Translations under genes and position numbers: made by a program
Source of the DNA: an uncultured Candidatus Saccharibacteria bacterium
GTDB lineage: Bacteria; Patescibacteriota; Minisyncoccia; UBA6257; UBA9933
Direction: 5' to 3'
Assembly (NCBI GenBank): GCA_964642155.1
Contig: CAZXNT010000002.1
Coordinates: 65,801-129,800 of the forward strand
DNA length: 64,000 bases
Shown here: piece by piece, positions 15,215 through 63,253 of the stretch
How the letters are laid out: each line of letters starts with the position of its first letter
Numbering within the stretch: position 1 is the stretch's first letter
Notes under the pieces: generated by a model
Database searches by the model: none
The model's input: only the letters and a program-made list of their open reading frames with translations
What the model was told of the DNA's origin: nothing

Positions 15215-15302
15215 TAATTCAGAATTAAGAATTAAGAAAAAAATTAAACCGCTAATTCTGAATTTATAATTCTGAATTTTGAATTAGCGAGCGAAGCGAG
15301 CT
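15215..15302. repeat. family A inverted-repeat element (GAATTMAGAATT units) ending exactly at the HIT gene ATG
   Basis: Sequence ..TTCAGAATTAAGAATTAAG..AATTCTGAATTTATAATTCTGAATTTTGAATTAGCGAGCGAAGCGAGCT-ATG. Its tail matches the one at 31611-31630. Confidence 0.75.
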
Positions 15303-15638
15303 ATGGATTGCTTATTTTGCAAAATCGCCAATAAAAATATAGCAACAGATTTCATTTTTGAAGATGACAGTATTATGGTTTTTAAAGATATTCATCCGTC
15401 AGCGCCTATCCATCACTTAATAGTTCCCAAAGAGCACATTCAGTCAATAAACCATTTGGAAAGCAATCATCAAGAAATTATTTCCAAAATGATTTTTATT
15501 GCCAAGAAAATGGCGGAGAATTTGGGATTAAAAGGATATAAATTAGTTTTTAACGTCGGCCGTGAAGGCGGGCAGGTGATTGACCACTTGCATTTACATC
15601 TCTTGGGCGGGTGGAAGAAATCCCCGGAAATTATTTAA
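15303..15638 (+). CDS. HIT family hydrolase
   Basis: Histidine triad HLHLHLLGG. N-terminus CLFCKI. Confidence 0.85.
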   Translation: MDCLFCKIANKNIATDFIFEDDSIMVFKDIHPSAPIHHLIVPKEHIQSINHLESNHQEIISKMIFIAKKMAENLGLKGYKLVFNVGREGGQVIDHLHLHLLGGWKKSPEII

Positions 15639-17503
15639 TCCAGCTTATAAATAAAGATTGATGTTCCAACGCGGTAATCCGGTTTATGCGGATTTTTTAT
15701 TTTTTGGAGCCATTGGTATTCGTCTTCGGGATTGCGTTGTTGTCCCGGATGAAGTTTTCCCGTAGCGTTTTGTAAAGTATTTATTGAAACGGCCAGCCAT
15801 TTTATATTTTCGTAAATCGGATTGTCTCGCGAAGATTGCCAGTATTCAACTTTATTGCCCAGATAATATTTGGGATTTCCTCCGCCGAAATAATCAATTG
15901 CAATTTTATCAATATTTTGGCCGGTCGGAGGATTATCAACAAACTTTTTGAGCTGTTTTAAATCCTGTCCCCAGTCATAATTTGAATCAACGGCATTTTT
16001 ATAGCCGTTCCAAATTCCGCCACCAAACTGATTGAAATAAGAAAGATAATGCGGGGTGGCGAATAAAGTTTCCAAAGCAAACCATAGAAGTAGCATGGCT
16101 AATAAACATTTGCGGATTGTTGATGAATTAACCATTTTTTTGGCTGCGGAGGCCGTTAGAATATAAATAAAAGGCATTGTCGGCAAAATATGGCGGATGC
16201 CGATATTAAGCGGACTTTTGATGCTATAGAGCCAGTAAAAAATCGCGAAAGACAGCATTGAAAATTCAGCAAAATGGAGAGCGAGATAGTCGTTTAAATT
16301 GGTTTGTAGTTTATAGCTCCGACGTAAAAGTCGGAGTCCCGACCTTGCGTCGGGATTTATAGTCCGTAGTTTTTTATAAATTAACCAAATACTAAATAGA
16401 AAAGTGAGTAAGATTAAAATTAAAGACGGAATAGGCTCTTTTAAGATGAATAAAATCGGAAAATAATACCACCAGCCGCTGGCCGAAACTTCTCCGAGAA
16501 AATATCCGGTATTGCCACCGGAAGAGCGTTGAATCACCATTAAAACGCCAAGCATATATTCGGCGAAGGGACGTAAAAATTTATTGCCGGACATCCAAAT
16601 ATTGGCGTCCGCCAGGCATCGCATCGGTTTGCAATTTTCGCCGGCTGGAGTCGGTTTTCCGGCAAAGGAAGTTAAAGTAATTTCCGTGTCGGATTTTTGT
16701 TTTTCTATTGGGTAGTTTATCGTAAATATGAAATAAACGGCGTAAACAACGGCATAGCCAATCAAAAAAATAACAAAAATGTTTTTTATGTATTGGAAAG
16801 CTTGAATAAAAAACTTTTTAGATATAGTTACTTCGCGGATATAAAAAACAATAATTAAAAAAATAAAAAAGGGGATAATTAAAACCGAGGAAAATTTAAG
16901 AAGTTGGGCAATACCAAATGAAACGCCGGCGAAAACGAGATATTTTTTTGATGGGGTTGAAAGAAATTTTACAAAAAAATATAAGGCGCAAAAAATTCCC
17001 AAAGCCGCGCCGATATCGGTTGTTACATAATGCCCGTGCGCTAATACGGTTGGCGATAGTCCGAATAAAAAAGCCGGCAACAAAGCCCACCAGCGGCCGA
17101 TAATTTCTTTTGACCAAATATAAATAAAAATTATTAAAATCAATGTTAATAGCATCGGTCCCAGCCGTGACCATTGGATTATTTTATCGGCGTCATTGCC
17201 TGATTCGTATAAAAATTGCGCGCCCGCGACCCATTGACCGTTAATGTCCATTTGCCATGAAGATTTATCAATTGGAAAGCCGAGATTTTGGAAAATTAAA
17301 GGAAAAGCCGCAATCGCTTTTACCAAGGGCGGATGTTCAGGGTTTAACCGATAATCAAGATATTTTACATATCCGTATCCAGCCGGAATATGCGCCAATT
17401 CGTCCATTGTAGCGGATTCTTGAAGCGAAGCGTTAAGCATTAAACCGAAAGAAATTAAAACAATCACGCCGAGCAATATCCAATTAAGATTATTTTTTAT
17501 CAT
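15635..17503 (-). CDS. GT-C family membrane glycosyltransferase (GT39/GT83, PMT/ArnT-like)
   Basis: 622 aa and polytopic. A DE motif in the first loop (SATMDELAH). Contains the in-frame family B hairpin pair. Confidence 0.7.
   Translation of the reverse strand: MIKNNLNWILLGVIVLISFGLMLNASLQESATMDELAHIPAGYGYVKYLDYRLNPEHPPLVKAIAAFPLIFQNLGFPIDKSSWQMDINGQWVAGAQFLYESGNDADKIIQWSRLGPMLLTLILIIFIYIWSKEIIGRWWALLPAFLFGLSPTVLAHGHYVTTDIGAALGIFCALYFFVKFLSTPSKKYLVFAGVSFGIAQLLKFSSVLIIPFFIFLIIVFYIREVTISKKFFIQAFQYIKNIFVIFLIGYAVVYAVYFIFTINYPIEKQKSDTEITLTSFAGKPTPAGENCKPMRCLADANIWMSGNKFLRPFAEYMLGVLMVIQRSSGGNTGYFLGEVSASGWWYYFPILFILKEPIPSLILILLTFLFSIWLIYKKLRTINPDARSGLRLLRRSYKLQTNLNDYLALHFAEFSMLSFAIFYWLYSIKSPLNIGIRHILPTMPFIYILTASAAKKMVNSSTIRKCLLAMLLLWFALETLFATPHYLSYFNQFGGGIWNGYKNAVDSNYDWGQDLKQLKKFVDNPPTGQNIDKIAIDYFGGGNPKYYLGNKVEYWQSSRDNPIYENIKWLAVSINTLQNATGKLHPGQQRNPEDEYQWLQKIKNPHKPDYRVGTSIFIYKLD
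16317..16355. repeat. family B hairpin pair (39 nt) inside the GT39 CDS, flanked by a 7-bp direct repeat TTTATAG
   Basis: CTCCGACGTAAAAGTCGGAG plus TCCCGACCTTGCGTCGGGA. TTTATAG at 16310-16316 and 16356-16362. Confidence 0.8.
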
Positions 17504-18363
17504 AATTCAAGTCCTTTTATGTATTTTTTTAATTCAGATTTGGTTTCTTTGTGTTGAAGGCCGGAATCAATAGTCGCTTTTAGAAAACCTATTTTTGTGC
17601 CACAGTCGTATCTCTTGCCTTCAAATTGGTAGCCATAAACCGCTCTTTTTTTGGCAACCGCAAGCAAAGCGTCTGTTAAAAATAATTCTCCTTTTGTTTT
17701 TATTTTTTTCAATTCCCTTATAACTTCCGGAGTTATTATGTATTTCCCGACTATTGCCAAATCAGACGGTTCTGTTCCAAGTTTGGGTTTTTCCACCAGA
17801 TTATTTATTTGAAAAGTTCTGGGCGCTATTTTAACGCCGTCAATAACTCCGTATTTATGAATTTCTTTTCGCGGTATTTTTTCAAGGGCGACAACCGGGT
17901 CTTGATATTTATTATACACTTCTATCAGTTGCAAAAGCGCGGGTTTTTTATTAAATACCAAATCGTCTCCGTAAAGTATTGCCACCGGCTCGTCTCCGAT
18001 TAAATGGCTCGCGCATAATATGGCGTCACCGGCTCCCTTGGGTTCTTTTTGTCGGACATAAGTGAATTTTGCCATATTAGAAATTTCCCTGATGGTTTTT
18101 AACAGTTCTTTTTTTCCGTTACTGTTTAATATTTGTTCCAATTCGTAAGCGTAATCAAAATGGTCTTCAATGGCTCGTTTGCCCCGGCCGGTAACAAAAA
18201 TAATTTCTTCAATACCCGAAGCAACGGCTTCTTCAACCAGATATTGGATAATCGGCTTATCAACAATCGGTAGCATTTCTTTTGGTTGGGCTTTTGTCGC
18301 CGGAAGGAATCTGGTGCCCATGCCGGCTACCGGAAGAATGGCTTTTTTAATTTTAGTAGTCAT
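17500..18363 (-). CDS. galU: UTP--glucose-1-phosphate uridylyltransferase
   Basis: AILPVAGMGTRFLPATK, EMLPIVDKP and VEKP motifs. Confidence 0.85.
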   Translation of the reverse strand: MTTKIKKAILPVAGMGTRFLPATKAQPKEMLPIVDKPIIQYLVEEAVASGIEEIIFVTGRGKRAIEDHFDYAYELEQILNSNGKKELLKTIREISNMAKFTYVRQKEPKGAGDAILCASHLIGDEPVAILYGDDLVFNKKPALLQLIEVYNKYQDPVVALEKIPRKEIHKYGVIDGVKIAPRTFQINNLVEKPKLGTEPSDLAIVGKYIITPEVIRELKKIKTKGELFLTDALLAVAKKRAVYGYQFEGKRYDCGTKIGFLKATIDSGLQHKETKSELKKYIKGLEL

Positions 18364-18774
18364 ATTATAAATTATATGTAAGAATAGTCAGCGTTATTTA
18401 CATCAAGCGTAAAATCTTTTTCCGCCGTATAAACAGCAAACACAAAATCATTTCTTTAACCCGCTCACGCCCCGCTTTGCGGGACTGCGCTTCCGTTAAG
18501 GTTTCAGAAATAATTTTATGTTTGCTGTTTTCTCCTACCCCGACATGCTGGCTTGAAAAAGATTTTACGTCTGATTCTATCTTTATATCTCGGACAAATT
18601 GTTTTTCAGAACATCCCGCAGGGCTGGTGGGCTTGGTCTCGGAGCGAAGCGGAGAGCCGCCAGCCCGAGGGCGAAGAAAATTTTGCCGCTGGAGCAAAAT
18701 TATTCTGCTTCTGAAAAATAATTTGTCCGAGAATATTGTAAGTAACGCTATAAAATCTTACAATTATATTATAA

Positions 18775-19089: not shown

Positions 19090-19094
19090 GGGGG

Positions 19095-19122
19095 TTGACA
19101 AGATTTTTAACGCGCCTATAAT
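19095..19122 (+). promoter_or_regulatory. near-consensus sigma70 promoter upstream of the 23S-5S rRNA genes
   Basis: TTGACA (19095-19100), 16-nt spacer, TATAAT (19117-19122). About 260 nt upstream of the 23S 5' end. Confidence 0.6.
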
Positions 19123-19544
19123 TGAAAGATTATTAATAAAATGACAATGCTAAAAAACATATCAAGCGGATGAAGACTTCGGCAAGTTTTTTTATTGTCT
19201 TCACCCCGCTTTCAAGCGGGATTTTTATTTTTTATGTCAACTAAAGCTTTGTTTTTTGAAAAAGTTTCAGTTGGTGTGAAAATCAGAATTTGTTGGTTGG
19301 TTAGTTTTTTAAAAATTGAATACAGGAAAATAAAAATAAAAGTAAAGTTATCCAACTTCTTGAATTCTGAATTTCAAGAAGATTTATTTAAGGGCGTATG
19401 GTGGATGCCTTGACATCAAACAGCGATGAAGGACGTGGCGTGGCTGCGATAAGCTTCGGGGAGGCGCTTAGCAACCTTTGATCCGAAGATTTCCGAATGG
19501 GGAAACCCTGCGCTGAAAACCAGCGTAAGCGCTGCTTTTCAGCG

Positions 19545-19628
19545 AATTTAGGATTACAAATTAAGAATTTAGAATTACGGAAAAATTATTTTTTAATTCT
19601 GCATTCTGCATTCTGAATTTTGAATTCG
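19545..19628. repeat. family A inverted-repeat element inserted in a 23S rRNA 5'-domain helix tip
   Basis: AGCGAATTTAGGATTACAAATTAAGAATTTAGAATTACGG..AATTCTGCATTCTGCATTCTGAATTTTGAATTCGCT. Perfect terminal inverted repeat AGCGAATT/AATTCGCT. Confidence 0.75.
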
Positions 19629-20029
19629 CTGCAAAGCAGCGTGGCTTACCCGCTGAAGTGAAACATCTCATTAAGCGGAGGAACAGAGAATAATAATTTA
19701 TTCCCCTAGTAGCGGCGAGTGAAAAGGGAGGAGCCTAAACTTATAAAAAAATTCGCAAGAAAATTTTTATAAGGGTTGCAAGACAGAGACGCTCTTTTGC
19801 TTTTCGCGAAGTCCTGAACTTATTGAAGGATTTCGCGATTTGTGAAAGGTGGAAGAGTTACAAATTCTTTGGTTAGCCAAATTAGCTGGAAAGCTGAACC
19901 ATAGCGGGTGATAGTCCCGTAGGCGAAAACCGAAGAACTCTTTAGTTTTTGATCTTAAGTACCTCGATGACAGGATGCTTCGAGGGAATCATCCGGCACT
20001 ATCCGGAAAGGCTAAATATGTTTGATGAT

Positions 20030-20066
<37 letters not shown>

Positions 20067-22004
20067 CAGGCCGGCGAGGCCGATGAAATAGTATCTGAAA
20101 CCATATGTCTACAAGGAACGGAAGTCCGCAAGGACGACCGTGTGCCTATTGAAGAATGAGCCAACGAGTTTATTTTACTCCTTTGTCTAAGCTTTACGGA
20201 GCGGAGGCATAGGGAAACCGAGTCTTAATAGGGCTACTATTAAGGGGTGGAATAAGACCCGAAGCCAAGCGAGCTTGCCCTGATCAGGATGAAGCGGAGG
20301 TAAAACTCTGTGGAGGTCCGAACCGGTTGGTTGTGCAAAACCTTCGGATGAATTAGGGTAAGAAGTGAAAAGCTAATCGAGCTTGGTAATAGCTGGTTCT
20401 CTCCGAAATAGCTTTAGGGCTAGCGTCGGGCAAAAATATATCTGGGGTAGAGCTACTGGTTGAGAAGTAATGGGGGAAACCTCGGCTTCTTAGTCAAACT
20501 CCGAATACGGATATAAATCGGTCCGGCAGTTAGAATGTGGGGGCTAAGCTCCATATTCAAAAGGGAAACAGCCCAAATCGTCGTCTAAGGTCCCTAAATA
20601 TTTGCTAAGTGTTAAAGGTAGTGATTCGCCATAGACAGATAGGAGGTTGGCTTAGAAGTAGCCATCCTTTAAAGAGTGTGTAACAACTCACTATTCGACG
20701 GCGAATTGCGCCGAAAATTTACCGGGGCTAAGCAAGTTACCGAAGACACGAATTTCGCCGCAAGGCGAAGTGGTAGGAGAGCATTTCAAACGCACTGAAG
20801 CCGGACTCGCGAGAGCCGGTGGAGTGTTTGGAAGAGAGAATGTTGGCATGAGTAACCACAATCCCAATGAGAATTTGGGACTCCGAAAATCCAAGGGTTC
20901 CTCCGTAACGGAAATCGACGGAGGGTTAGGCGATCCTAAGGCAATGGCGAAAGCCGCAGCTGATGGGAAGCTGGTTAATATTCCAGCCCCTCTGTATAGT
21001 TCGATGTGGTGACGAAGAAAATAAGATTGAGCGTCTTAATGGTTTGACGTTGTTTGTTTCCAGAATTTTTCGACAGGCAAATCCGTCGGAATGCTTTTAA
21101 CGGCAAAATTCGGAAACCGAAAAAATTCGCTTACGGGCGGAAATTCAATCGAAGAGTCTTCCGAGAAAAACCTCTAAGAATAGCTATATAGAGATCGTAC
21201 CGTAAACCGACACAGGTGGGTGAGGCGAGAAGCCTAAGGAGAACGAGTGAGTCTTCGTTAAGGAACTCGGCAAAAAAGCGGCCGTAAGTTCGCAATAAGG
21301 CCTGCCCGCAGCAATGCGGGCCGCAGCGAAAGTATCTCTAGCGACTGTTTAACAAAAACACAGCTCCCTGCGAACTCGCAAGAGGATGTATAGGGGGTGA
21401 TGCCTGACCGATGCGAGAAGGTCAAGCTTGGCGGTGCTTTGCAGCAATGTGGAGTGCTGACTGGGTTAAGCCCTCGTCAATGTCAGCGATAACTATAATC
21501 GTTCTAAGGTAGCGCAATTCCTTTTCGGGTAAGTTCCGAAGCGCACGAATGGTATAACGACTGGAGAACTGTCTCAACGAAGAGCTCGGTGAAAATGCGA
21601 TTCCCGTGAAGACGCGGGATACCTGCAACGGGACGAAAAGACCCCGGGAGCTTTACTGCAGCTTGATATTGTTTTTAGAATTTTGATGCGTAGCGTAGTG
21701 GGGAGCCTTTGAAGCTTCGCTTTCGGGCGGAGTGGAGGCGTCAATGAAACACCCATCTTTAAAATTTTAAAGACTAACCTTGGCGGCAAAAACGTCAGGG
21801 AACAGTGTCTGGCGGGCAGTTTAAATGGGGCGTTTTCCTCCTAAAAAGTAACGGAGGAGTTTATTAAGGTCGGCTAGGAGCGGATGGAAATCGCTCTCGT
21901 CGTGTAAACGCACAAGCCGGCTTAACTGCAAGGCCTACAAGCCGCGCAGACGCGAAAGCGGAAGTTAGTGACCCGACAATTCTTTATAGAAAGGTTGGAG
22001 ACAC

Positions 22005-22038
<34 letters not shown>

Positions 22039-22233
22039 GTTGCCCGAGAGTCCTTATCGACGGCAACGCTCGGCACCTCGATGTCGGCTCATCACAGCGC
22101 GGGGGTGAAGAAGCTCCCAAGCGTTTGGCTGTTCGCCAATTAAAGTGATACGTGAGCTGGGTTCAAACCGTCGTGAGACAGGTTGGTCTCTATCTGTTGC
22201 AGGCGTTGATATTTGAGGGAAGTTGACCCTAGT

Positions 22234-22957
22234 AAGAAATTGCTACTTCGCGGAGTAATCCGCGATGACAATTTGGCTAATAACGGTGAAGTCTTAATAT
22301 TTGATTATCATAATCGGTCTGAATGATAATTTACTTGAGGACCAAGAAATGTTAAGATAATACCGTGGGAAGTCAATCTAAAATAAATTTAGCATATATC
22401 GCTGGTTTTCTTGATGGCGATGGAAGTCTGATGCTCCAAATTAAAAAACGGAAAGATAGCAATAAATCGTATAGATTTATGGCTACTATTTGTTTTTATC
22501 AGGATTCGCGGCATGAAAAACCGCTTTTCTGGATACAAAAAGTTTTAAACATCGGATATTTATCTAAAAGAAAAGATGGCATAAGTGAATTAAGAATCAA
22601 TGGTTTTAAACAAATCGAAAAAATTCTTAATAATTTATCACCATTTATTAAATTTAAGAAAATTCAAGCGAAAATTCTTTTAAAGTCTGTAATTTTTCTT
22701 CAAAAATCTGATTTAAAAGAAAAAGATTTGAGGATATTAGTAAATAATATTATTCAAATTCAATCTGAGAATTATGTTTCTAAGAAAAAGCGGACAAAAG
22801 AAGAATTGTTTAAAATTTTAGGTTTGACCCCGTAACGACTGAGTCTAAAAAAGACAAGATAGGAATTTTAAAATTTCTATAATATGCCGATATCCAATCC
22901 CGCCATGGCGGGAGGATAAAGATATAGTCTACACACATAGTGATATGTGATTATGTG
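22234..22957 (+). mobile_element. intron in 23S rRNA (group I-type inferred) carrying a LAGLIDADG homing endonuclease ORF
   Basis: Exon junction rebuilds the conserved CCUAGU|ACGAGAGGACC. 5' exon ends in U and the insert ends in G. The HE ORF is internal. Confidence 0.7.
22365..22835 (+). CDS. LAGLIDADG homing endonuclease (single-motif, homodimer type)
   Basis: LAYIAGFLDGDGSL motif near the N-terminus. 156 aa, I-CreI-like size. Confidence 0.85.
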   Translation: MGSQSKINLAYIAGFLDGDGSLMLQIKKRKDSNKSYRFMATICFYQDSRHEKPLFWIQKVLNIGYLSKRKDGISELRINGFKQIEKILNNLSPFIKFKKIQAKILLKSVIFLQKSDLKEKDLRILVNNIIQIQSENYVSKKKRTKEELFKILGLTP

Positions 22958-23089: not shown

Positions 23090-23121
<32 letters not shown>

Positions 23122-23233: not shown

Positions 23234-23350
23234 TGCTGGTGTTTTACTTATACATGAACCACTCCTTCCCATTCCGAACAGGACAGTGAAAGTGTGTAAG
23301 ACTAATGATACTTTTCGCCTCGGCGGATGGGAAAGTAGGCTATGCCAGCA
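23234..23350 (+). rRNA. rrf: 5S ribosomal RNA
   Basis: TGCTGGTG..CCAGCA terminal helix. Internal CCCATTCCGAACAGGACAGTGAAAG matches the 5S loop B/C consensus. Confidence 0.8.
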
Positions 23351-23447
23351 TATAAAAGTTTTGGCGTTTTTTTATTTGTAAGGTATAATATTTATAATTA
23401 ATTAACGAGTTATTATTCATTGGAAATTGTAAATTGTAAATTAAAAC

Positions 23448-26831: not shown

Positions 26832-27512
26832 ATGGTAATTCTTGTGATTTTACTCGGCGTTTTACCGTCATTAATCTGGCTGGTTTTCTTTTTAAAAGAG
26901 GACCCCCATCCGGAGCCGAAAGGCATATTGGCGCGAATTTTTATTTACGGTTCTTTTGCCGCTTTAATGGCGGTTGTTTTCCAATATTTTTTTCAGGACA
27001 TTTTGGATTTTTTTAGAATAGGCGAATATGCTTTTATTTCTTTTTTTATTTTAGCCGCCGTTGAAGAAATTTTAAAATTTACGGTTGTTTATATAACCGT
27101 CAATAAAAAAAGTTTTTTTGACGAACCGGTTGACGCGATGATTTATATGATAACCGCGGCTTTGGGGTTCGCGGCTTTGGAAAATATATTTATTGCTTCC
27201 AACGGTTTATTAACAGGCAGTTTTAAAAACGGGGAAGTTTTTAGTATTTTAACAATTCGTTTTGTCGGCGCCACTCTTTTTCACGCTTTAGGAGCGGGTA
27301 TCGTCGGGTATTATTGGGCAAAAGGATTTTTTAAAATTGGAAATTGGAAATTGAAAATTATAAAAGGCCTTATTATAGCGACCTTCTTGCATGCTGTTTT
27401 TAATTATTCTATAATTATGTTTAAGGACGCGAATATCTTGATTTATCCGTTGATTTTTTTAATAATTATCGCACTGGTTGTTTTTAAGGATTTTGAGAGA
27501 GTAAAAATATGA
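26832..27512 (+). CDS. PrsW-family intramembrane metalloprotease-like protein
   Basis: Polytopic. EEILKF (EExxK), FHALGAG and HAVFN (HxxxN) motifs. Contains a GAAATTG x3 in-frame tandem repeat. Confidence 0.5.
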   Translation: MVILVILLGVLPSLIWLVFFLKEDPHPEPKGILARIFIYGSFAALMAVVFQYFFQDILDFFRIGEYAFISFFILAAVEEILKFTVVYITVNKKSFFDEPVDAMIYMITAALGFAALENIFIASNGLLTGSFKNGEVFSILTIRFVGATLFHALGAGIVGYYWAKGFFKIGNWKLKIIKGLIIATFLHAVFNYSIIMFKDANILIYPLIFLIIIALVVFKDFERVKI

Positions 27513-28199: not shown

Positions 28200-28656
28200 A
28201 ACAACTTCATCTATCCAGACTAAAAAAATAGCGAAATTATTAGCGCGGGAAATTTTGTATTCAAAAGCTTCACAAATAGGCATATCTAAAAACGCCTTTG
28301 TTTTACTTTTAAGCGGGGATTTAGGAGCGGGCAAAACGACATTTATTCAAGGTTTTTTGCGTGGCTTGGGGATTGGTAAAAAAATTACCAGCCCCACATT
28401 TGTTTTAATTAAAACTTATAAACTTAAGAATTTAAAAACTTACAAACTAATCCATCATATTGATTGTTATCGCATTCATAAACCGAAAGATATTAAGGGC
28501 ATTAGCATAAAAGAAATTTTAAAAAATCCTCAAAATATTGTTTTAATAGAATGGCCGGAAAGAATAAGGCGCATATTGCCGAAAAACGTTATAATGATAA
28601 AATTAAAGTACGGTAAAAAAGAAAACGAGAGGATTATGAGTATAAAATTTGAATGA
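28192..28656 (+). CDS. tsaE: tRNA threonylcarbamoyladenosine biosynthesis ATPase TsaE (YjeE)
   Basis: P-loop GDLGAGKTTF at the typical position. About 150 aa. Confidence 0.7.
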   Translation: MIKTTSSIQTKKIAKLLAREILYSKASQIGISKNAFVLLLSGDLGAGKTTFIQGFLRGLGIGKKITSPTFVLIKTYKLKNLKTYKLIHHIDCYRIHKPKDIKGISIKEILKNPQNIVLIEWPERIRRILPKNVIMIKLKYGKKENERIMSIKFE

Positions 28657-30927: not shown

Positions 30928-31509
30928 ATGGCTAATCAAGTTGCGCAAGAAAAATCAAAATCTTCAACAAGAGAAAATAACGGCGAACGTCATTGGTACG
31001 CCGTCCATACTTATTCCGGCTACGAAGACGCGGTGGCGCGTTATTTGAAGCAGAGGATTGATTCTTTGGAAATGAATGATAAGATTTTTAACATTATTGT
31101 TCCGAAAGAAAAAAAGATTAAGATAAAAAACGGCAAAAGAAGAGAGGTGGAAGAAAAAATATACCCGGGATACGTTTTAGTTAATATGGTAATGAGCGAT
31201 GATTCGTGGTATGTTGTGAGAAATACTCCGCGCGTTGCGGGTTTTGTCGGCGCAAACTCCACCGAACCGACTCCGCTTTCCAAAAAAGAAGTTGACGCTT
31301 TGTTGTCGCGAATGGGCGATAATGAGCCTAAATTTAAAGTGGAATTTAATACGGGCGAAACGGTTAAAATCACTGACGGACCGTTTAAAGACAGCGAGGG
31401 CAAAATCAGCGAGGTTGACGAAGAACATGGAAGATTAAAAGTAATGGTTCCGATTTTCGGCAGAGAAACTGCGGTAGAATTGGATTCGTTGCAAGTACAG
31501 AAAATTTAA
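30928..31509 (+). CDS. nusG: transcription termination/antitermination factor NusG
   Basis: NGN domain (HWYAVHTYSGYE) and a C-terminal KOW domain. Confidence 0.85.
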   Translation: MANQVAQEKSKSSTRENNGERHWYAVHTYSGYEDAVARYLKQRIDSLEMNDKIFNIIVPKEKKIKIKNGKRREVEEKIYPGYVLVNMVMSDDSWYVVRNTPRVAGFVGANSTEPTPLSKKEVDALLSRMGDNEPKFKVEFNTGETVKITDGPFKDSEGKISEVDEEHGRLKVMVPIFGRETAVELDSLQVQKI

Positions 31510-31540
31510 TAAATTTTTATTATTAAAATTTATTAAATCT

Positions 31541-31630
31541 TAATTTAGAATTAAGAATGCAGAATTAAGAATTAAATATAAAATTCTTAATTCTTAATTT
31601 GTAATTCTGAATTAGCGAGTGAAACGAGCT
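31541..31630. repeat. family A inverted-repeat element in the rplK leader; its tail supplies an in-frame GTG and ends at the rplK ATG
   Basis: GAATTAAGAATGCAGAATTAAGAATT-AAATATAAA-ATTCTTAATTCTTAATT..AATTCTGAATTAGCGAGTGAAACGAGCT-ATG. The tail matches 15278-15302. Confidence 0.75.
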
Positions 31631-32050
31631 ATGAAGGAAATCAAAACAACATTAAAACTTCAAATTCCGGCGGGCGCGGCCAATCCGGCGCCACCGATTG
31701 GTCCGGCCTTAGGACAGCACGGCATAAATATTGCTCAATTTTGTCAGCAATTTAATGAAGCCACAAAAGAAATGGTTGGCAGTATTATTCCCGCGGAAAT
31801 CACGATTTTTGTTGATAGGACTTTTGAATTTAAACTTAAAACTTCACCGGCTTCGGATTTATTGAGAAAAGCGGCCGGCATTGAAAAAGGCGCGGGCAAT
31901 CCTTTAAAAAATAAGGTTGGCAAAGTGAGTAAGGCGCAAATTCGCGAAATTGCCGAGAAAAAAATGGTTGATTTGAACGCTAATGACGTTGAAGCGGCAA
32001 TGAAAATCATTGAAGGAAGCGCGCGAAGCATGGGAATTGAGATAGTTTAG
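31631..32050 (+). CDS. rplK: 50S ribosomal protein L11
   Basis: [33 protein letters not shown] matches the L11 N-terminus. The track ORF starts at a GTG 12 nt upstream, inside the repeat tail. Confidence 0.9.
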
Positions 32051-32120
32051 TTTTTAAAAGGGGGTGGCGAAAGCCGCCTCTTTTTTTGCGTTTGCGCGTA
32101 AAAATTTATATAATTATGGC

Positions 32121-33548
32121 ATGTATAAACCTACAATTGGTTTGGAAATACATACGGAATTGAAAACGCAAACAAAGATGTTTTGCGGGTGTTTAAATGA
32201 GCCGCATAATGCCGAGCCGAATACGAATGTTTGTCCGATTTGTTTGGCGCATCCTGGGACTTTGCCGGTAGCGAATAAAAAAGCCATTGAAGCGGTTCTG
32301 AAATTGGGCATGGCTTTAAATTCAAAAATTCCTGAAACGTCAAAATTTGACCGCAAAAATTATTTTTATCCGGATTTGCCGAAAGGATATCAGATTTCCC
32401 AATATGACCAACCATTGGTTATGGGAGGTGAACTTAAGGGAGTAAAATTAACGAGAGTGCATTTAGAAGAAGACACGGCGCGACTGCTTCATGAAGGCAA
32501 AAATAGTTTGGTTGACTTTAACCGCGCGGGCGTGCCTTTGATGGAATTGGTGACTGAACCGGATATTAAAACGGGCGAACAGGCCGTGAATTTTGCTAAA
32601 GAGTTGCAAATGATTTTGCGTTATTTGGGAATTTCCGACGCGGATATGGAAAAGGGGCAGATGCGCGTTGAAGCGAACATCAGCGTTTCCAAAAATTCAG
32701 AAATGGGAACGAAAGTGGAAGTTAAAAATCTTAATTCTTTCCGAGCTGTTCAAGACGCGGTTGATTATGAAATAAAAAGGCAGGAAGAAATTTTAGAAAA
32801 AGGAGAAAAAGTGATTCATGAAACGCGCGGTTGGGATGAGAAGAAGGGGATTACCGTAAGTCAGCGTGCCAAAGAAGAAGCGCATGATTATCGTTATTTT
32901 CCGGAGCCGGATTTGCCGATAATGGATATTTCTAAATTTGATTTAGGCGGATTAAGGGCGGAAATTCCGGAGTTGCCTCAACAAAAACGCGAAAGATTTA
33001 TCAAAGAATATGGATTAAAATCGGATCAAATAGAGATTTTTATTCAAGACCATGATTTGGCAAATTATTTTGAAGAATCGGTTTCAGAGTTGGGCGAGGA
33101 ATTGGGTGGCGCAAATAAAAAAGGGGAAGCAATTAATACATTATTTAATTATTTAACTAGTGATATTAAGGGATTGACAAATGAGCTTGAAATTGGTATA
33201 AATTTATTAAATATTGCTCCGGAAAATTTCGCGGATTTAATTGTTTTAATTATTAAAGGCGAGATTTCCAGCCGCATTGCCAAAGATTTAATAAGAGAAA
33301 TGCATAAAAGCGGCGTTGACCCGCGGCAGATTATTAAAGAAAAGGTCTGGAATCAAGTTTTTGACGAAGCGGAAATTGAAAAAATCATCCAGGAAGTGAT
33401 TAATGAAAATCCTTCAGCTGTTGAAGATTATAAAAAAGGTAAACAAAATATCATTCAATTTTTAATCGGTAAAGCAATGGCAAAATTAAAAGGCCGCGGT
33501 AATCCGGAAAAATTAAAAGAGCTATTGGAAATAAAGCTTGTTTCTTAA
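32121..33548 (+). CDS. gatB: Asp-tRNA(Asn)/Glu-tRNA(Gln) amidotransferase subunit B
   Basis: MYKPTIGLEIHTELKTQTKMFCGC N-terminus and a C-terminal YqeY-like domain. The track ORF starts upstream at 32064, which is less likely. Confidence 0.9.
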   Translation: MYKPTIGLEIHTELKTQTKMFCGCLNEPHNAEPNTNVCPICLAHPGTLPVANKKAIEAVLKLGMALNSKIPETSKFDRKNYFYPDLPKGYQISQYDQPLVMGGELKGVKLTRVHLEEDTARLLHEGKNSLVDFNRAGVPLMELVTEPDIKTGEQAVNFAKELQMILRYLGISDADMEKGQMRVEANISVSKNSEMGTKVEVKNLNSFRAVQDAVDYEIKRQEEILEKGEKVIHETRGWDEKKGITVSQRAKEEAHDYRYFPEPDLPIMDISKFDLGGLRAEIPELPQQKRERFIKEYGLKSDQIEIFIQDHDLANYFEESVSELGEELGGANKKGEAINTLFNYLTSDIKGLTNELEIGINLLNIAPENFADLIVLIIKGEISSRIAKDLIREMHKSGVDPRQIIKEKVWNQVFDEAEIEKIIQEVINENPSAVEDYKKGKQNIIQFLIGKAMAKLKGRGNPEKLKELLEIKLVS

Positions 33549-40637: not shown

Positions 40638-41348
40638 ATGCGTAAAAGAAAATTAAGTCAAAAATTTATTATCGGCATAGATGAGGTGGGGCGGGGAGCG
40701 CTGGCGGGTCCGGTAACCGTGGCAGCCTTAGTATTGCCACAGAATTTTCATAAAATTATCCGCGTTAATCCGCTTCTAAAAAAAGAAAAATTCCTGCCTG
40801 CCGGTAAGCAGACGCGTCAATTCGCTTCTATAATAAGGGATTCTAAAAAATTAACTTCGCGGCAAAGAGAGATTTGGTTTTCTTATATTAAAAAATTATC
40901 GCTATCCTATAGGATAGCATCCGTGTCACCGAAAATTATTGATAAAATTAATGTTTCTCAAGCGGCAAATTTAGCCGCTACCCGCGCAATCAAAAAATTA
41001 ATTGAAAACTATAAGTCCCGACGTAAAGTCGGGACCCCGACCAAAGCGTCGGGGTTAAAAACTAAAAACTGCAAAATATTTCTCGACGGCGGATTATTTC
41101 TTAATTCTAAATTCTGCATTCTGAATTCCACCACAGTGGTAAGGGGCGATGAAAAAATCCCCGCAATCTCCTTAGCCTCCATTGTCGCCAAAGTTCATCG
41201 TGACAAATTAATGAAACGGCTTCATAAAAAATATCCGCGCTACGATTTTATCAATAATGTCGGTTATGGCACGAAAAAGCACATTAAGGCGTTGCGCAAA
41301 TTCGGCCATTCGCCAATCCATCGCAAAACTTTTCACGGCGTTGTATAA
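40638..41348 (+). CDS. rnhB: ribonuclease HII
   Basis: IGIDEVGRGALAGPV and DSK motifs. Carries two in-frame repeat insertions (family B at 41016-41054, family A at 41098-41130). Confidence 0.85.
   Translation: MRKRKLSQKFIIGIDEVGRGALAGPVTVAALVLPQNFHKIIRVNPLLKKEKFLPAGKQTRQFASIIRDSKKLTSRQREIWFSYIKKLSLSYRIASVSPKIIDKINVSQAANLAATRAIKKLIENYKSRRKVGTPTKASGLKTKNCKIFLDGGLFLNSKFCILNSTTVVRGDEKIPAISLASIVAKVHRDKLMKRLHKKYPRYDFINNVGYGTKKHIKALRKFGHSPIHRKTFHGVV
41016..41054. repeat. family B hairpin pair (39 nt) in frame inside rnhB
   Basis: TCCCGACGTAAAGTCGGGA plus CCCCGACCAAAGCGTCGGGG. Confidence 0.8.
41098..41130. repeat. family A repeat (TTCTTAATTCTAAATTCTGCATTCTGAATTCC) in frame inside rnhB
   Basis: Encodes LNSKFCILNST. 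Confidence 0.75.
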
Positions 41349-41360
41349 TAAATAATCTTT

Positions 41361-44886
<3,526 letters not shown>

Positions 44887-44901
44887 TGTAATCTATATAT
44901 T

Positions 44902-45903: not shown

Positions 45904-45907
45904 AAAT

Positions 45908-47644: not shown

Positions 47645-47648
47645 ATAT

Positions 47649-48050: not shown

Positions 48051-48354
48051 AATAATTAATAAACAAACATTGGAAAAATTGGCGGAATTGGCGCGGATAG
48101 AAATCAGCGGCGATAAAGAAGAAAAACTTTTAAGCGATTTAAAAGCGATTTTGGGGCATTTTGAAGAATTAAAAGAGGTTGATGTTTCGGGGGTTATTAG
48201 TCCCGCTAAGCGAGACGCCGTTGAATTAACGAATATTTTTCGCGAAGACGAGCCGGTTGAAAGTGAAACTACGGCGATTGATTTAATTGAATCTTTTCCG
48301 GAAAAAGAAGGGAGATTTTTGAAAGTTCCTCCAATTTTTATGAATAATGAATAA
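48043..48354 (+). CDS. gatC: Asp-tRNA(Asn)/Glu-tRNA(Gln) amidotransferase subunit C
   Basis: About 100 aa. LAELARIEISGDKEEKLLSDL is GatC-like. Translationally coupled to gatA. Confidence 0.75.
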   Translation: MDEIINKQTLEKLAELARIEISGDKEEKLLSDLKAILGHFEELKEVDVSGVISPAKRDAVELTNIFREDEPVESETTAIDLIESFPEKEGRFLKVPPIFMNNE

Positions 48355-49804
48355 TGAATTAGGAATTATGGATATTCGCGGACTAACTATTAAAAAATTT
48401 CATCAAGGGCTGGTTGGCAAGGAGTTTTCCGCTTTTGAAATTGCGAAAGTGTTTTTTGATTTAATTAAGTCGCGCGATAAAGAAATCGGAGCGTATTTGC
48501 GATTAAGTGAAGACGCGGCTTTGGAGCGAGCAAAAATTGTTGACGCGGAATTAAATAGCGGCAGCAAACTTGGTATTTTAGCGGGCGCGCCCTTGGCGAT
48601 TAAAGACATTATTTTAATTAAGGGGGAAAAAACGACCGCGGCTTCAAAAATTTTGGAAAATTACACGGCGAGTTATGACGCTACGGTTATTAAAAAATTG
48701 AAAAACAGCGGCGCGGTTTTTCTTGGTAAAACCAATATGGATGAATTTGCCATGGGTTCTTCAACGGAAAATTCCGCTTTCCAAAAAACAAAAAATCCGC
48801 GCGATTTAGAGAGAGTGCCGGGAGGTTCTTCAGGTGGTTCTGTGGCGGCGGTGGCGGCTGATATGGCGGTGGCGGCTTTAGGTTCGGATACAGGAGGTTC
48901 AATCCGCCATCCAGCTAATTTTTGCGGCGTAGTCGGGTTAAAGCCGACTTACGGCGCGGTTTCCCGTTATGGCTTAATCACTATGGCCTCTAGTTTAGAC
49001 CAAATCGGGCCCATAACAAAAACAGTGGAAGACGCGGCGATTTTATTTAAAGAAATCAGCGGACGCGATAAATTTGATGCCACGAGTGTTAACTATAAAT
49101 ATAATGACGAGCTTTTGAAACCGGATTTTGAAAAAATAAAAAAATTAAAAATTGGATTGCCGAAAGAATATTTTATTTCCGGCTTATCAAAAGAAACGGA
49201 AAACGCGATTAATGAAACCATTAAACAATTAAAAAATCTAGGATTTGAGTTTAAAAAAATCAGTTTACCGCACACAAAATACGCTTTGTCTTGTTATTAC
49301 ATTATTATGCCGGCAGAAGTGAGCGCAAATTTGGCGCGTTTTGACGGCATACGCTATTCGCGAATTCAAAATTCAAAATTCAGAATTCAGAATTTAAAAG
49401 ATATTTATTTAAAAACTCGAGGAGAGGGTTTTGGTGATGAAGTTAAACGAAGAATAATCTTGGGAACTTTCGTTTTATCATCCGGTTATTATGACGCTTA
49501 TTATTCCAAGGCGCAGAAGGTCAGGCAGTTGATTAAACAGGATTTTGATAATGCTTTTGGGGAAGTGGATGTGATTTTGACTCCGGTTTCGCCAACTCCG
49601 GCTTTTAAAATCGGCGAAAAAACAAGCGACCCATTACAGATGTATCTGGAAGATATTTTTACCATTCCCGTTAATTTGGCGGGCTTGCCGGCGATTTCCA
49701 TTCCAACGCGGACAAAAGGATTGCCAATCGGATTTCAGCTCATTGGCAAACATTTTCGCGAAGCGGACATTTTGGGGATAGGGCAGTGGTATGAGAGAAA
49801 TTAA
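48347..49804 (+). CDS. gatA: Asp-tRNA(Asn)/Glu-tRNA(Gln) amidotransferase subunit A
   Basis: Amidase signature (GGSSGGSVAAVAA..GSDTGGSIR). Family A repeat in frame (RIQNSKFRIQNLKDIY). Confidence 0.9.
   Translation: MNNELGIMDIRGLTIKKFHQGLVGKEFSAFEIAKVFFDLIKSRDKEIGAYLRLSEDAALERAKIVDAELNSGSKLGILAGAPLAIKDIILIKGEKTTAASKILENYTASYDATVIKKLKNSGAVFLGKTNMDEFAMGSSTENSAFQKTKNPRDLERVPGGSSGGSVAAVAADMAVAALGSDTGGSIRHPANFCGVVGLKPTYGAVSRYGLITMASSLDQIGPITKTVEDAAILFKEISGRDKFDATSVNYKYNDELLKPDFEKIKKLKIGLPKEYFISGLSKETENAINETIKQLKNLGFEFKKISLPHTKYALSCYYIIMPAEVSANLARFDGIRYSRIQNSKFRIQNLKDIYLKTRGEGFGDEVKRRIILGTFVLSSGYYDAYYSKAQKVRQLIKQDFDNAFGEVDVILTPVSPTPAFKIGEKTSDPLQMYLEDIFTIPVNLAGLPAISIPTRTKGLPIGFQLIGKHFREADILGIGQWYERN
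49360..49396. repeat. family A repeat (GAATTCAAAATTCAAAATTCAGAATTCAGAATTTAAAAG) in frame inside gatA
   Basis: Inserted where GatA homologues run ARYDG..EGFG without this segment. Confidence 0.75.
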
Positions 49805-49813
49805 AAATTTTTG

Positions 49814-49887
49814 CGCGGGTGACCGGATTTGAACCGGCGATCCCTACCGTGACAGGGTAGTGCTTTAGACCGCTAAGCTACACCCGC
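49814..49887 (-). tRNA. tRNA-Asp (anticodon GTC)
   Basis: Minus strand GCGGGTG-TA-GCTTAGCGGTCTAAAGC.. Anticodon stem CTACC/GGTAG with loop CTGTCAC. T-arm CCGGTTCAAATCCGG. Confidence 0.85.
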
Positions 49888-49918
49888 AATGTCAAATATA
49901 TTATCATTTAATCGGCAT

Positions 49919-51289
49919 TTATTTCAACCCCTTTACAATTTCTTTAAATTTTTCTCCTCTGTCTTTATAGTCCTTAAACATATCAAAACTGGCGGTGGCG
50001 GGGGAGAATATAATATGAATTATGAAGTATGAATTATAAGTCAAGGATTTTGCGGTTTGATAAGCTAAATTGACGGCTGATTGTAGATTTTTAACTTCCA
50101 TAATTCTTAATTCTTTATTCTTAATTCCAAAAATCGCTTTTGCGATTTTTTTCTTGTTTTCGCCGAATAAAATAACCATTTTCGTGTTAGAATTTTTTAG
50201 CGCTTTGGCAAGGGGAGTGTAATCAAGATTTTTATCTTTGCCGCCGCAGATTAAAATTTTCGGCTGGTTCGGAAAAGCGCGAACCGCCGCCGCGGCGGTG
50301 TAAGGATTAGTAGAGGCGGAATCATTATAAAAGTTAATTCCAATATTCTTGAGAATATTGGAATTAACCAGTTCTAGGCGATGTTCCATACCGCTATAAT
50401 TTTTAACGACTTTTTTGATAATTTTCGGATTAATGCCGAGAGATTGCGCCACAGCTACGGCCATAGCGACATTTTTTAAATTATGTTCGCCAACGATTTT
50501 TATATCTTTTAGGTAAAGTTTATTCTCAAATTCTTGAGAATATTGGAATAAAGAAATTGGGATTTTTGCGGCTTTGCTTTTTTGCGCTATCCATCTGCTC
50601 CATTTATTGCTCGCGTCGTAGAAAATTTTATCGGATTTTTTCTGCCATTTAGCGATCTTGGTTTTAGCGTTTACGTATTCGTTAAAATTTTTATGGCTGT
50701 CTAGGTGGTCTTCAAAAACATTCAAAACAACGGCAATATTCGGTCCGCCAGTTGGCGGATTAAAATCCTGTAATTGAAAACTGGAAAGTTCTAAAACCAC
50801 AATGGATTTTTTATCTAATTTCGGCAAAATTTCAATCGCCGGTTTGCCGATATTGCCCGCCAAAAATACATTTTTACCGGCCGTTTTTAATATTTTATAA
50901 AGCAAAGTGGATGTTGTGCCCTTGCCTTTTGTGCCGGTAATGCCGATAATTAGCGGTCGCGGACTTACACGGACTTGACGCGGACTTATACGGATTGTCT
51001 GCATTAGTCCGTGTTTTGTCTGTATTGGTCTGCGTATTATATCAAAAAACAAATTCGTGGCGCTGGAAAATTTAACGCCTTTTTTAATGGCGTTTTGTAT
51101 TTCGGGGAGGTTATAGGGGATGCCGGGCGAACGAAAAACAATGTCAAATTGAGCAAGATTTTTAAGATAATTCTTGTCCATTTTTTTGTCTAAAATAGAA
51201 ATCTCCGCGTTTTTATATTGAACTGATTTTTTGAGAAATCTTAAAACCGCTTTGCCTTCGTGGCCAAACCCCAAGATTGCAATTTTCAT
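49919..51289 (-). CDS. murD: UDP-N-acetylmuramoylalanine--D-glutamate ligase
   Basis: N-terminal Rossmann MKIAILGFGHEGKAV and P-loop GITGTKGKGTT. Contains family C and family A repeat insertions in frame. Confidence 0.8.
   Translation of the reverse strand: MKIAILGFGHEGKAVLRFLKKSVQYKNAEISILDKKMDKNYLKNLAQFDIVFRSPGIPYNLPEIQNAIKKGVKFSSATNLFFDIIRRPIQTKHGLMQTIRISPRQVRVSPRPLIIGITGTKGKGTTSTLLYKILKTAGKNVFLAGNIGKPAIEILPKLDKKSIVVLELSSFQLQDFNPPTGGPNIAVVLNVFEDHLDSHKNFNEYVNAKTKIAKWQKKSDKIFYDASNKWSRWIAQKSKAAKIPISLFQYSQEFENKLYLKDIKIVGEHNLKNVAMAVAVAQSLGINPKIIKKVVKNYSGMEHRLELVNSNILKNIGINFYNDSASTNPYTAAAAVRAFPNQPKILICGGKDKNLDYTPLAKALKNSNTKMVILFGENKKKIAKAIFGIKNKELRIMEVKNLQSAVNLAYQTAKSLTYNSYFIIHIIFSPATASFDMFKDYKDRGEKFKEIVKGLK
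50013..50128. repeat. family A inverted pair (ATGAATTATGAAGTATGAATTATAAG ... TAATTCTTAATTCTTTATTCTTAATTCC) inside the murD 3' region
   Basis: The two arms are inverted relative to each other and encode ..KNKELRIME.. on the minus strand. Confidence 0.7.
50959..51040. repeat. family C CGGACTT-unit repeat (CGGACTTACACGGACTTGACGCGGACTTATACGGATTGTCTGCATTAGTCCGTG..) in frame inside murD
   Basis: Encodes RISPRQVRVSPRP upstream of the P-loop. Matches 12852-12880 in pth. Confidence 0.8.
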
Positions 51290-63250: not shown

Positions 63251-63253
63251 AAT

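Follow-up and report, generated by a model that had tools for sequence, protein, structure and literature searches.

The DNA considered here is a window of 64,000 nucleotides (nt) of contig CAZXNT010000002.1 (positions 65,801 to 129,800), which its LigA homologues place with Candidatus Wolfebacteria/Parcubacteria of the candidate phyla radiation (CPR). Across the whole window, Rfam at gathering thresholds recovered only a 23S rRNA gene (19378-22298), a 5S rRNA gene (23234-23351), and tRNAs, and Pfam identified the products of the protein-coding genes of interest as RNase HII (rnhB), MetRS (metG), LigA, TrpRS, GatC, a HIT protein, L11 (rplK), NusG, HisRS (hisS), and GatB; GatA and MurD were identified by structure comparison. 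Dispersed among these genes is a family of short, AT-rich tandem arrays, here termed family A, which occurs as hairpins of two inverted arrays in the leaders of HIT and rplK, as a comparable hairpin within the 23S rRNA, and as single arrays within rnhB, metG, ligA, gatA, and murD. The original prediction for this window had named these loci as the insertion sites of a hexamer-based palindromic element resembling the Rickettsia palindromic elements (RPEs) or the miniature transposable elements with inverted repeats (MITEs), and the motif is indeed present at all of them. For its own genome, the analysis covers the 64-kb window; the other DNA stretches with which it was compared carry L-numbers (e.g., L082, L083, L087, and L097), the relatives among them being metagenome contigs. 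A contig scan with a LigA alignment gave a sequence 62% identical as the best among the matches listed, and closer relatives were obtained via exact-protein look-ups.

The motif GAATTMAGAATT, with at most one mismatch, has 38 matches in the window against an expectation of 4.2 ± 2.0, a number reached by 0 of 100 dinucleotide-preserving shuffles. For consecutive GAAT[TG] cores, a 7-nt interval was counted 25 times and a 6-nt interval twice; therefore, the unit is a heptamer (GAATTAA, GAATTCA, GAATGCA, GAATTTA, and similar forms) and not the hexamer first proposed. The consensus unit is GAATTMA, and an array typically comprises 4 to 5 units (~31 nt); one form of the core, GAATTC, is a palindromic hexamer that we take to be the EcoRI site. 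Tandem Repeats Finder (TRF), run blind, returned 62 rows, 18 of which are period-7 arrays of 3.3 to 5.4 copies each, with ~12 of the 18 belonging to family A. Over 31 kb that take in the rnhB, metG, and ligA arrays, the window is matched at 100% identity by the Logan assemblies of two sequencing runs; the arrays are therefore not assembly artifacts. Among the other stretches, family A was found in L085, L087, L088, L090, and L097 and went undetected in the 12 to 22 kb examined per relative in L082 to L084. All-versus-all identity of the arms is 60 to 82%, and the sole robust pattern in the order of their units is that GAATGCA is unit 3 of the leader copies, across species.

Stable folds are confined to three full copies, in which inverted-repeat arms of 23 to 33 nt are 85 to 87% complementary. 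The copy in the hisS-HIT spacer (15205..15303, + strand; inverted repeat I6, with TRF arrays; dG −29.9 kcal/mol, z −5.2) consists of a 5' clamp (AGCTTTGCT), a left heptamer array (15215-15238), a right inverted array (15254-15285), and a tail mini-hairpin of the form UAGC-GA-GC-GAA-GC-GA-GCUA (15285-15303), which ends with the A that opens the HIT start codon. The copy in the nusG-rplK spacer (31541..31631, + strand; inverted repeat I1, 33-nt arms, 85% complementary; dG −28.4 kcal/mol, z −6.0) has a left array TAATTTA GAATTAA GAATGCA GAATTAA GAATTAA (31541-31575), a 6-nt loop, a right array (31582-31614), and a tail mini-hairpin (31613-31631; variant GUGAAAC) that ends on the A of the rplK AUG. 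The third copy is an extended hairpin inside the 23S rRNA (19529..19642, + strand; located by Rfam alignment; dG −51 kcal/mol, z −7.1), whose family-A part (19544-19627; left array, 19544-19577; right array, 19595-19627) stands on a 15-bp basal helix (19529-19543/19628-19642). All three align end to end, from the left end TTAATTYAGAATTAAG to the right end CTGAATTTTGAATTAGC. The two leader copies additionally have in common a 17-nt nonrepeat tail, GCGAGYGAARCGAGCT, which is followed directly by ATG and occurs nowhere else in the window. The fold of this tail is a 19-nt mini-hairpin, UAGC-GA-GY-GAA-RC-GA-GCUA, that closes on the A of the start codon; a compensatory change, from C-G to U-A, distinguishes its two variants, and no Shine-Dalgarno (SD) motif is visible between tail and AUG at the leader copies. 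The family-A copies are related by descent, given the common termini and the common nonrepeat tail of the leader copies. The notion of a single dispersed palindromic family in mRNA leaders, a 23S helix tip, and essential genes holds up, whereas the inverted-repeat architecture ascribed to all copies applies to these three and not to the five coding copies, which are single arms.

The composite of family-A hairpin, tail, and ATG recurs in other genomes. In a metagenome scan, it was recovered in L088, where it precedes the HIT orthologue, in L087 together with five contigs nearly identical to it, where a DedA/VTT gene follows, and also in L090 and L097. The HIT proteins of L088 and the window are 71% identical and their four-fold-type sites are saturated (10/31 identical), and the element retains 75% identity, its tail and its two termini being intact. 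As this identity is kept where such sites are saturated, the HIT leader element has been maintained, by selection or by homogenization with other copies. Rfam gave no family match to the leader element at E ≤ 10, only generic hairpin/miRNA models far under their thresholds. The 21-nt tail was found in 18 contigs of the metagenome scan, against ~5 chance matches expected if the collection holds ~10^12 bases (an estimated size). The tail mini-hairpin has the size of a repetitive extragenic palindromic (REP) element, and no transposase adjoins the tail in other contigs; its interpretation as the end of a transposon or REP was rejected, as the unrelated GC-rich contigs with the tail have no transposase nearby, and no Y1/RAYT gene was seen among the open reading frames (ORFs) scanned. 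Three of these tail matches have an extended AATT...AATT stem; the tail motif with such a stem, AATTAGCGAGCGAAGCGAGCTAATT, was observed in the unrelated, partly GC-rich contigs L093, L095, and L098/L101, and in L098/L101 (~3.3 kb, phage-like by eye only) it occurs three times in tandem with no transposase nearby; these may be chance matches or a separate small palindromic family.

In the Rfam alignment of the 23S rRNA, an 8-nt loop of the model is represented by 95 nt, in the hairpin at model positions ~152-178, which is the second hairpin after GGGGAAACCC. We take this site to be helix 10 in E. coli terms, next to helix 9. The copy accordingly maps to a helix tip, as had been expected of it. 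The relative L083, whose 23S rRNA is 89% and LigA 78% identical to those of the window, has no more than a minimal hairpin here, CCGTC-GCAA-GACGG, so that the two sequences differ by a net 96 nt. The flanks of the copy are inverted, forming a helix, and not direct. In anatomy and distribution (a replaced helix tip, sporadic among relatives), the 23S copy corresponds to a classical intervening sequence (IVS). A further hairpin at 19356-19381, at first counted as a copy in the 23S leader, is not significant (z −1.3); since it is kept in L083, where 22 kb show no family-A motif, it is the native 5' stem of the 23S rRNA rather than a copy. Other features of this rRNA locus include a second insertion of ~66 nt (~19791-19856, after Rfam model position 312) that does not consist of family-A heptamers, a LAGLIDADG endonuclease ORF (22365-22835; Pfam E = 6 × 10−11) in the 935 nt that separate the 23S gene, whose 3' end is at 22298, from the 5S gene (23234), and the lack of a 16S gene upstream of the 23S gene, indicating that the rRNA genes are unlinked. 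In L083, ~149 nt at the 23S 3' end have no match in the alignment with the window.

The five coding copies are single tandem arms of 27 to 37 nt with no significant fold (z −0.1 to −1.7); the lower value for ligA (z −3.5) is due to a short GC clamp. Net length changes were measured against solved homologues or close orthologues. The rnhB arm (41096..41128, − strand; z −0.6) has four units, TTAATTC TAAATTC TGCATTC TGAATTC on the + strand, and encodes LNSKFCILNS; the two conserved motifs DGG and VRGD enclose the variable segment to which this peptide belongs, and the L082 and L085 orthologues have a segment of similar length and other sequence there, with AAATTAC/AAACTAC-type units in L082. The metG array (41870..41903, + strand; z −0.2) has 4.7 units, GAATTAA GAATTAA GAATAAT GAATTAA GAATA; its counterpart in L082 is of equal length with 18 of 36 nt different, and that in L085 is nearly identical to the window. 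In ligA (44437..44472, + strand), the arm AAATTTA GAATTCA GAATGCA GAATTAA GAATTAG falls in the region for the HhH domain. The gatA arm (49362..49399, + strand; z −1.65) has 5.3 units, GAATTCA AAATTCA AAATTCA GAATTCA GAATTTA, and encodes RIQNSKFRIQNLK. The murD arm (50101..50127, − strand), with 3.9 units reading GAATTAA GAATAAA GAATTAA GAATTAT on the gene strand, encodes GIKNKELRIM, where L082 and L083 have ISKQKLVI and INNQKLAI, respectively, and are 3 amino acids (aa) shorter.

These arms do not behave as the in-frame insertions in multiples of 3 that they had been taken for: the net change is 0 aa in metG, +3 aa in gatA (versus GatA structures 3h0l and 4wj3), +3/4 aa in murD (versus MurD structures 3lk7 and 7sir), ~+4 aa in rnhB, and +8 to +10 aa in ligA (+8 aa versus L082 and +10 [+4] aa versus E. 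coli LigA 2owo). With arrays of 27 to 37 nt and so small a net change, the arrays therefore mostly overlay native loop codons. Comparison of the host proteins with their orthologues does place the arms mostly in variable loops, as anticipated, with the exception of metG, which contains no extra segment. An in-frame TAA would arise from (GAATTAA)3, and the coding arms carry exactly those unit variants by which it is avoided, namely GAATAAT in metG, GAATAAA in murD, and GAATGCA/GAATTCA in ligA. Two further arrays near these genes were detected by TRF. ATGAATA × 5 at the gatC/gatA junction (48340..48374, + strand) reaches 82% identity with the murD arm when the two are best aligned without gaps, and gives gatA an apparent N-terminal extension, MNNELGI, that is lacking from orthologues, which begin MDI; it is probably a diverged family-A member. 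TATGAAT × 3.4, a degenerate period-7 array near the murD C terminus (50014..50037, − strand), is 49 to 69% identical to the other arms, and orthologues have a variable segment of similar length there; its assignment to family A is weak. A different situation was observed in L087, where the tpiA coding sequence contains the two family-A arms with 44 nt between them (L087:5133-5240), as an exception to the rule of single arms in genes, and the product is merely ~10 aa longer than the Pfam TIM model.

The ligA copy is the one clear net insertion among the coding copies, and it lies at a hypervariable hot spot. The arm is missing from L082, which has the closest LigA orthologue (82% identity) and nothing at this position (site 1), and the same site is occupied by other heptamer units or by GC palindromes nested in arrays in L083, L084, and L085 (e.g., AATTTAC arrays in L084 and AAAATCA arrays around a GC palindrome in L083). 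At a second LigA site, L084 and L085 have 5 × AACTACA (peptide NYKLQTT). Over 120 orthologues, the presence or absence of site-1 inserts calls for at least 18 changes on a neighbor-joining tree, as compared with a mean of 21 for random labels, and turnover at this loop appears to be very fast on what is a weakly resolved tree. Polymorphism was thus confirmed among relatives, the 23S copy being missing in L083 and the ligA copy in L082; both Logan runs are identical to the window over the 31 kb compared. Small GC-rich palindromes resembling those nested in the arrays at site 1 of the relatives are also found in frame in the window, for example GTCCCGAC-GTAAA-GTCGGGAC followed by CCCCGAC-CAAAGC-GTCGGGG. 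Together with a 10-nt repeat, AAGTCCGYGT, such palindromes occur at 41013-41057 and 40790-40815 (rnhB), 43300-43335 (ligA), and 50953-51037 (murD); these in-frame repeats encode segments such as ISPRQVRVSPRP, several of which are missing from at least one close orthologue.

We determined the density of arrays of at least three copies per 100 kb in the window, in 0.64 Mb of Parcubacteria loci, and in 0.75 Mb from other bacteria. Period 7 reaches 25 per 100 kb in the window, where other periods attain up to 7.8 (period 8); 14.5 in the Parcubacteria loci, where every other period is at or below 3; and 3.75 in the other bacteria, mainly from a few Acidobacteria, where other periods are at or below 1.5. 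Array copy number peaks at 4 to 5 in CPR and non-CPR loci alike, with a median length of 31 nt. Arrays inside long ORFs amount to 8 of 16 in the window and to 54% in the CPR loci, where the coding fraction is 86%. The units are lineage-specific, with other genomes using AAGTATC, AAATCTC, AACTACA, AATTTAC, and others. By its 7-nt tandem unit recurring at many loci in a lineage-dependent manner, family A has the sequence characteristics of heptameric simple sequence repeats (SSRs) or STRR sequences (short, repetitive, and tandemly repeated). The window contains arrays of other units as well: AATTTTC × 4 in pth (peptide NFQFSI, which is also found at LigA site 1 of other species), an AAATTGG array in prsW that recurs in L083 and L084, an ATTGTAA array just before the start of ORF 23448, and period-8 AAACTYWA arrays that include one in the LigA HhH-BRCT linker; the loci of these arrays are 13122-13148, 27334-27359, 23419-23442, 44627-44669, 28411-28448, and 319-349.

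Cyanobacterial STRR heptamers are reportedly dispersed, including within the gene for RNase P RNA, in accounts attributed to Mazel (1990) and Vioque (1997), and so share with family A the presence of heptamer arrays in a structural RNA gene, while phylum and units differ. Overrepresentation of heptamer SSRs in many bacteria has been documented along with a GGGGAYT family in Nostoc (Rehm et al. 2015, PMC4692102), and an idea of Mrazek (2007), as far as it is conveyed by its citation in that paper, is that ~7 nt fits the polymerase active site. In Xanthomonas, GGGAATC arrays show a four-unit preference, form 70 to 75 convergent pairs per genome, and lie at most 50 bp from ORF ends (PMC4692102). 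Family A resembles these Xanthomonas/Nostoc repeats in its lineage-specific 7-nt unit, the ~4 units per array, the convergent pairs of its three hairpins, two of which abut start codons, and the variation of orthologous sites in length and sequence among relatives. It differs in being AT-rich, with no G-quadruplex possible, in having one 23S copy and a leader tail hairpin, and in the share of arrays in coding sequence (8/16 in the window versus 7 to 11% in Xanthomonas). As the AT-rich unit can form no G-quadruplex, the ~four-unit preference is not explicable by such a structure. Marine Beggiatoaceae, cyanobacteria, and Bacteroidetes have TAACTGA arrays just upstream of SD-less starts, for which no mechanism was apparent (MacGregor 2015, PMC4679880), and heptamer arrays of Nostoc near or overlapping start codons have some reporter effects (bioRxiv 10.1101/2022.06.06.494920). 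The TAACTGA repeats (2 to 6 copies) and family A both occur a few nucleotides upstream of SD-less starts, including those of ribosomal protein genes, with a patchy phylogeny; however, the TAACTGA sets are almost all direct single arrays (one indirect among 170), unlike the inverted pairs of the family-A leader copies, and they have few in-ORF copies and no reported rRNA copies. Family A is a new AT-rich instance of this heptamer-repeat phenomenon in the CPR.

The full copies also call to mind IVSs, which in Coxiella, Leptospira, and Salmonella have terminal inverted repeats, are cleaved by RNase III, and sometimes carry an ORF of the PF05635 family; the Coxiella stem of ~28 bp is cut by RNase III (PMC4990558). 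For 23S genes of the CPR, short insertions lacking an ORF have been catalogued and likewise read as IVSs (Tsurumaki 2024, PMC11270868). The 23S copy is likewise an extended stem-loop in place of a helix tip, sporadic in relatives and with terminal inverted repeats. Unlike a classical IVS, it has no ORF, adjoins helix 9 rather than being in helix 9, 25, or 45, and has arms that are tandem heptamers. The family also occurs in mRNA leaders and as half-copies in genes, of which we found no description in the literature searched.

A connection to the IVS protein family emerged in a related contig. In L097 (1436-1950), inverted family-A arrays bracket a 113-aa ORF belonging to PF05635, named "23S rRNA intervening sequence protein" (E = 5 × 10−20), which also matches TIGR02436 ("four helix bundle protein") and, weakly, Avd of the diversity-generating retroelements (DGRs); this copy is intergenic and not in rRNA. 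We then assembled 20 IVS-protein genes: 8 recovered with a hidden Markov model (HMM) built from four such ORFs and searched against the ORFs of the DNA examined, 4 from a homologue search chosen on taxon label only, and 8 from finished plasmid records, mostly of heterocystous cyanobacteria. By eye, 19 of the 20 are abutted by period-7 or period-8 arrays, and 15 of the 20 by inverted pairs, with genome-specific units such as AGTATTA/TAATACT, TCAGGAG/CTCCTGA (Nostoc punctiforme), AAGGGAA/TTTCCCT (Geminocystis), GTGGCYA/CCACTRN (an Omnitrophica metagenome-assembled genome [MAG]), and AGTCGCT/CGACTAG (an Acidobacteriaceae MAG). A fixed criterion was then applied, under which a gene passes if a flank of 120 nt has 15/21 or more period-7 matches or if its two flanks are complementary at 16/20 or more; 15 of the 20 genes pass, as compared with 47 of 600 random genes (7.8%; Fisher P = 2 × 10−12); for the IVS-protein genes that were not discovered via repeats, the proportion is 13/18 (Fisher P = 1 × 10−10 versus random). 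The genes with arrays come from the CPR, Acidobacteria, Nitrospirae, Omnitrophica, cyanobacteria, and Azospirillum, and further array-bracketed loci include L003:6540-7010, L013:14030-14500, L025:3800-4290, L070:1380-1960, L105 to L107, L110, L112, and L115. No description of this link was found in the literature searched. An IVS-protein gene with flanking arrays also lies inside a type III-B CRISPR operon, between cas10/cmr2 and cmr3 (L113; Picosynechococcus sp. PCC 7003 plasmid, NZ_CP016476.1, 126158-127287).

Taking these observations together, we consider it probable, with considerable reserve, that family A consists of lineage-specific AT-rich heptamer arrays whose paired form is an ORF-less miniature IVS-type hairpin (75 to 95 nt) and whose single arms persist in permissive protein loops. 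Heptameric SSR/STRR arrays combined with RNase III-type intervening sequences, both already documented (PMC4692102, PMC4679880, PMC4990558), provide a better frame for it than RPEs or MITEs. Judging from stem length only, the ~30-bp AU-rich stem of the full copies could be an RNase III substrate. The 23S copy would then be excised or trimmed from the pre-23S rRNA, as in classical IVSs, and cleavage of the leader copies would part the upstream cistron (hisS or nusG) from the downstream one, so that the HIT and rplK mRNAs would begin with the small tail hairpin directly abutting the AUG. Some benefit to the host might follow. Single arms in genes would be the expected residue of selection against a hairpin inside an mRNA, and the coding copies would mostly replace loop codons as short patches rather than lengthen proteins. 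Spread likely proceeded by copy-paste or short-patch gene conversion between arrays, together with replication slippage within arrays.

Several observations weigh against this reading. The 64-kb window contains no RNase III gene or signature motif. HMM searches detected no PF05635 gene among the window ORFs, and none lies in the 2 to 3 kb gained beyond each end, so that family A is linked to PF05635 through one related contig (L097) and the general association. IVSs classically occupy helix 9, 25, or 45, and the 23S site lies outside these three. Covariation in the long stem is minimal (2 of 33 pairs changed on both sides), the copies being too similar. We sought a derivation of the coding arms from the left or right arm as subfamilies, and at 60 to 82% identity no clear structure emerged. 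The metG product aligns gap-free with the MetRS structures 4dlp and 2csx, its native helix codons being overlaid by the array, and L083 gatA has 5 × AAATCTC at the same codons and with the same length as the 5 × GAATTCA of the window. At the three full copies, no target-site duplication (TSD) was seen by eye, no formal search having been run, and neither the window ORFs scanned nor the surroundings of copies in other contigs yielded a transposase.

The metG array without length change and the orthologous arrays of other units therefore keep alive, as a rather unlikely account, purely local microsatellite-type evolution, in which arrays arise and turn over in situ through replication slippage, along the lines of the polymerase idea of Mrazek (2007), and hairpins form by compensatory slippage with no dispersal and no element. 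Equal-length orthologous arrays of different units, in gatA (window versus L083) and at LigA site 2, speak for it; the gatA array begins from native codons, TCG CGA ATT CA, that are also present in L082, the AATTTTC, AAATTGG, and ATTGTAA unit families are single in the window, and both the clustering at 4 to 5 units in CPR and non-CPR loci alike and the overrepresentation of heptamer SSRs in many bacteria (PMC4692102) agree with it. It does not readily explain why ~12 of 18 period-7 arrays in 64 kb are of one unit family, why the full copies have common termini and the leader copies a 17-nt tail with a compensatory change, or why the composite stands before unrelated genes in several species. 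The 23S copy is moreover a +96-nt all-or-none difference from a relative, and the metG patch, at 18/36 nt off L082 in an otherwise highly conserved gene, resembles replacement and not drift. A more elaborate alternative, which we regard as possible but doubtful, is that the heptamer-array hairpins are the ORF-less form of a widespread, unrecognized selfish cassette whose ORF-bearing form encodes PF05635/TIGR02436, a relative of the DGR accessory protein Avd. The inverted arrays would be the cassette termini, the RNA stem would let the cassette be cut from rRNA or mRNA, and the IVS protein could bind the arrays or help generate them. If true, such a cassette would link three long-standing problems: the origin of 23S IVSs, the role of the very large IVS-protein family, and the overrepresentation, in cyanobacteria, Xanthomonas, Acidobacteria, and the CPR, of tandem heptamers such as STRR, GGGAATC, and TAACTGA.

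RPEs are 100- to 150-bp elements that are translated whole and add ~30 to 50 aa. Family A is like them a small palindromic family in intergenic regions, RNA genes, and in-frame coding sequence of a reduced genome, and the terminal inverted repeats typical of MITEs are present in its full copies. A transposing RPE-like or MITE-like palindromic element, tolerated in frame in proteins and in a 23S helix, is nonetheless improbable. The part of the proposed likeness that stands is a dispersed family with inverted arms, patchy among relatives and with presence/absence polymorphism of the 23S and ligA copies, whose coding copies lie in variable loops and avoid stop codons. In the genes, however, there are half-elements of ~30 nt, with a net 0 to +4 aa in four of the five (0 to +10 aa overall) and, for metG, no insertion of any kind, and a one-off MITE insertion offers no explanation for relatives having other heptamers at the same codons (gatA in L083). 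The host is a CPR bacterium and not Rickettsia, and the only ORF-bearing version of family A encodes PF05635, a four-helix bundle that is not a known transposase. The model thus fails in three respects: a TSD could not be seen by eye, the ORFs scanned include no transposase, and what lies in the genes are not entire elements inserted in frame. We consider it very improbable that the arrays are instead sites for a DNA- or RNA-binding protein (a CSP/S1-type regulator, nucleoid protein, or uptake-signal receptor), accumulated by selection or by a drive like that of uptake signal sequences and arising in genes by point substitution. Lineage-specific unit "dialects," the metG copy without length change, and the leader element kept at an orthologous site would suit such sites, as would arrays abutting SD-less starts, for which a regulator was proposed in Beggiatoaceae and Nostoc (PMC4679880; bioRxiv 10.1101/2022.06.06.494920); yet binding would not need the inverted arrangement, and all three noncoding copies are hairpins, one of them inside a 23S helix, while coding copies lie on either strand relative to the gene and no candidate binding protein was identified in this analysis.

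A few further candidates were rejected. A CRISPR (the heptamers are contiguous, without spacers) and an uptake-sequence reading were set aside by eye, as was a terminator, the AU-rich stems having no following U-run in an inspection for which no promoter/terminator scan was run. Telomerase-like repeat addition at DNA ends would yield inverted arrays; no reverse transcriptase was seen, and the idea is pure speculation. Among other features of the window, a 20-nt AT-rich palindrome lies between the nusG stop codon and the rplK element (31501-31541), rplK is followed by gatB rather than rplA (31631-33548), an unusual L11 neighborhood, and positions 59000 to 64000, like L116, encode RadC, a Fic protein, and a restriction-modification-like cluster (an N6_Mtase/Eco57I-domain protein and Methylase_S).

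If family A is indeed a set of heptamer arrays whose paired form is a miniature IVS-type hairpin, one family occurs in three settings, as an rRNA intervening sequence, as a 5'-leader hairpin, and as a peptide-coding patch in essential enzymes, pointing to a common origin of the insertions in CPR rRNA and the "insertions" in proteins. In practical terms, the arrays inflate protein alignments, make false N-terminal extensions (as in gatA), and may cause errors in the gene calling and rRNA-based pipelines applied to CPR genomes. The statistical link between IVS genes and arrays across phyla offers a testable handle on the nature of IVSs and their ORFs and on why 7-nt repeats are special.

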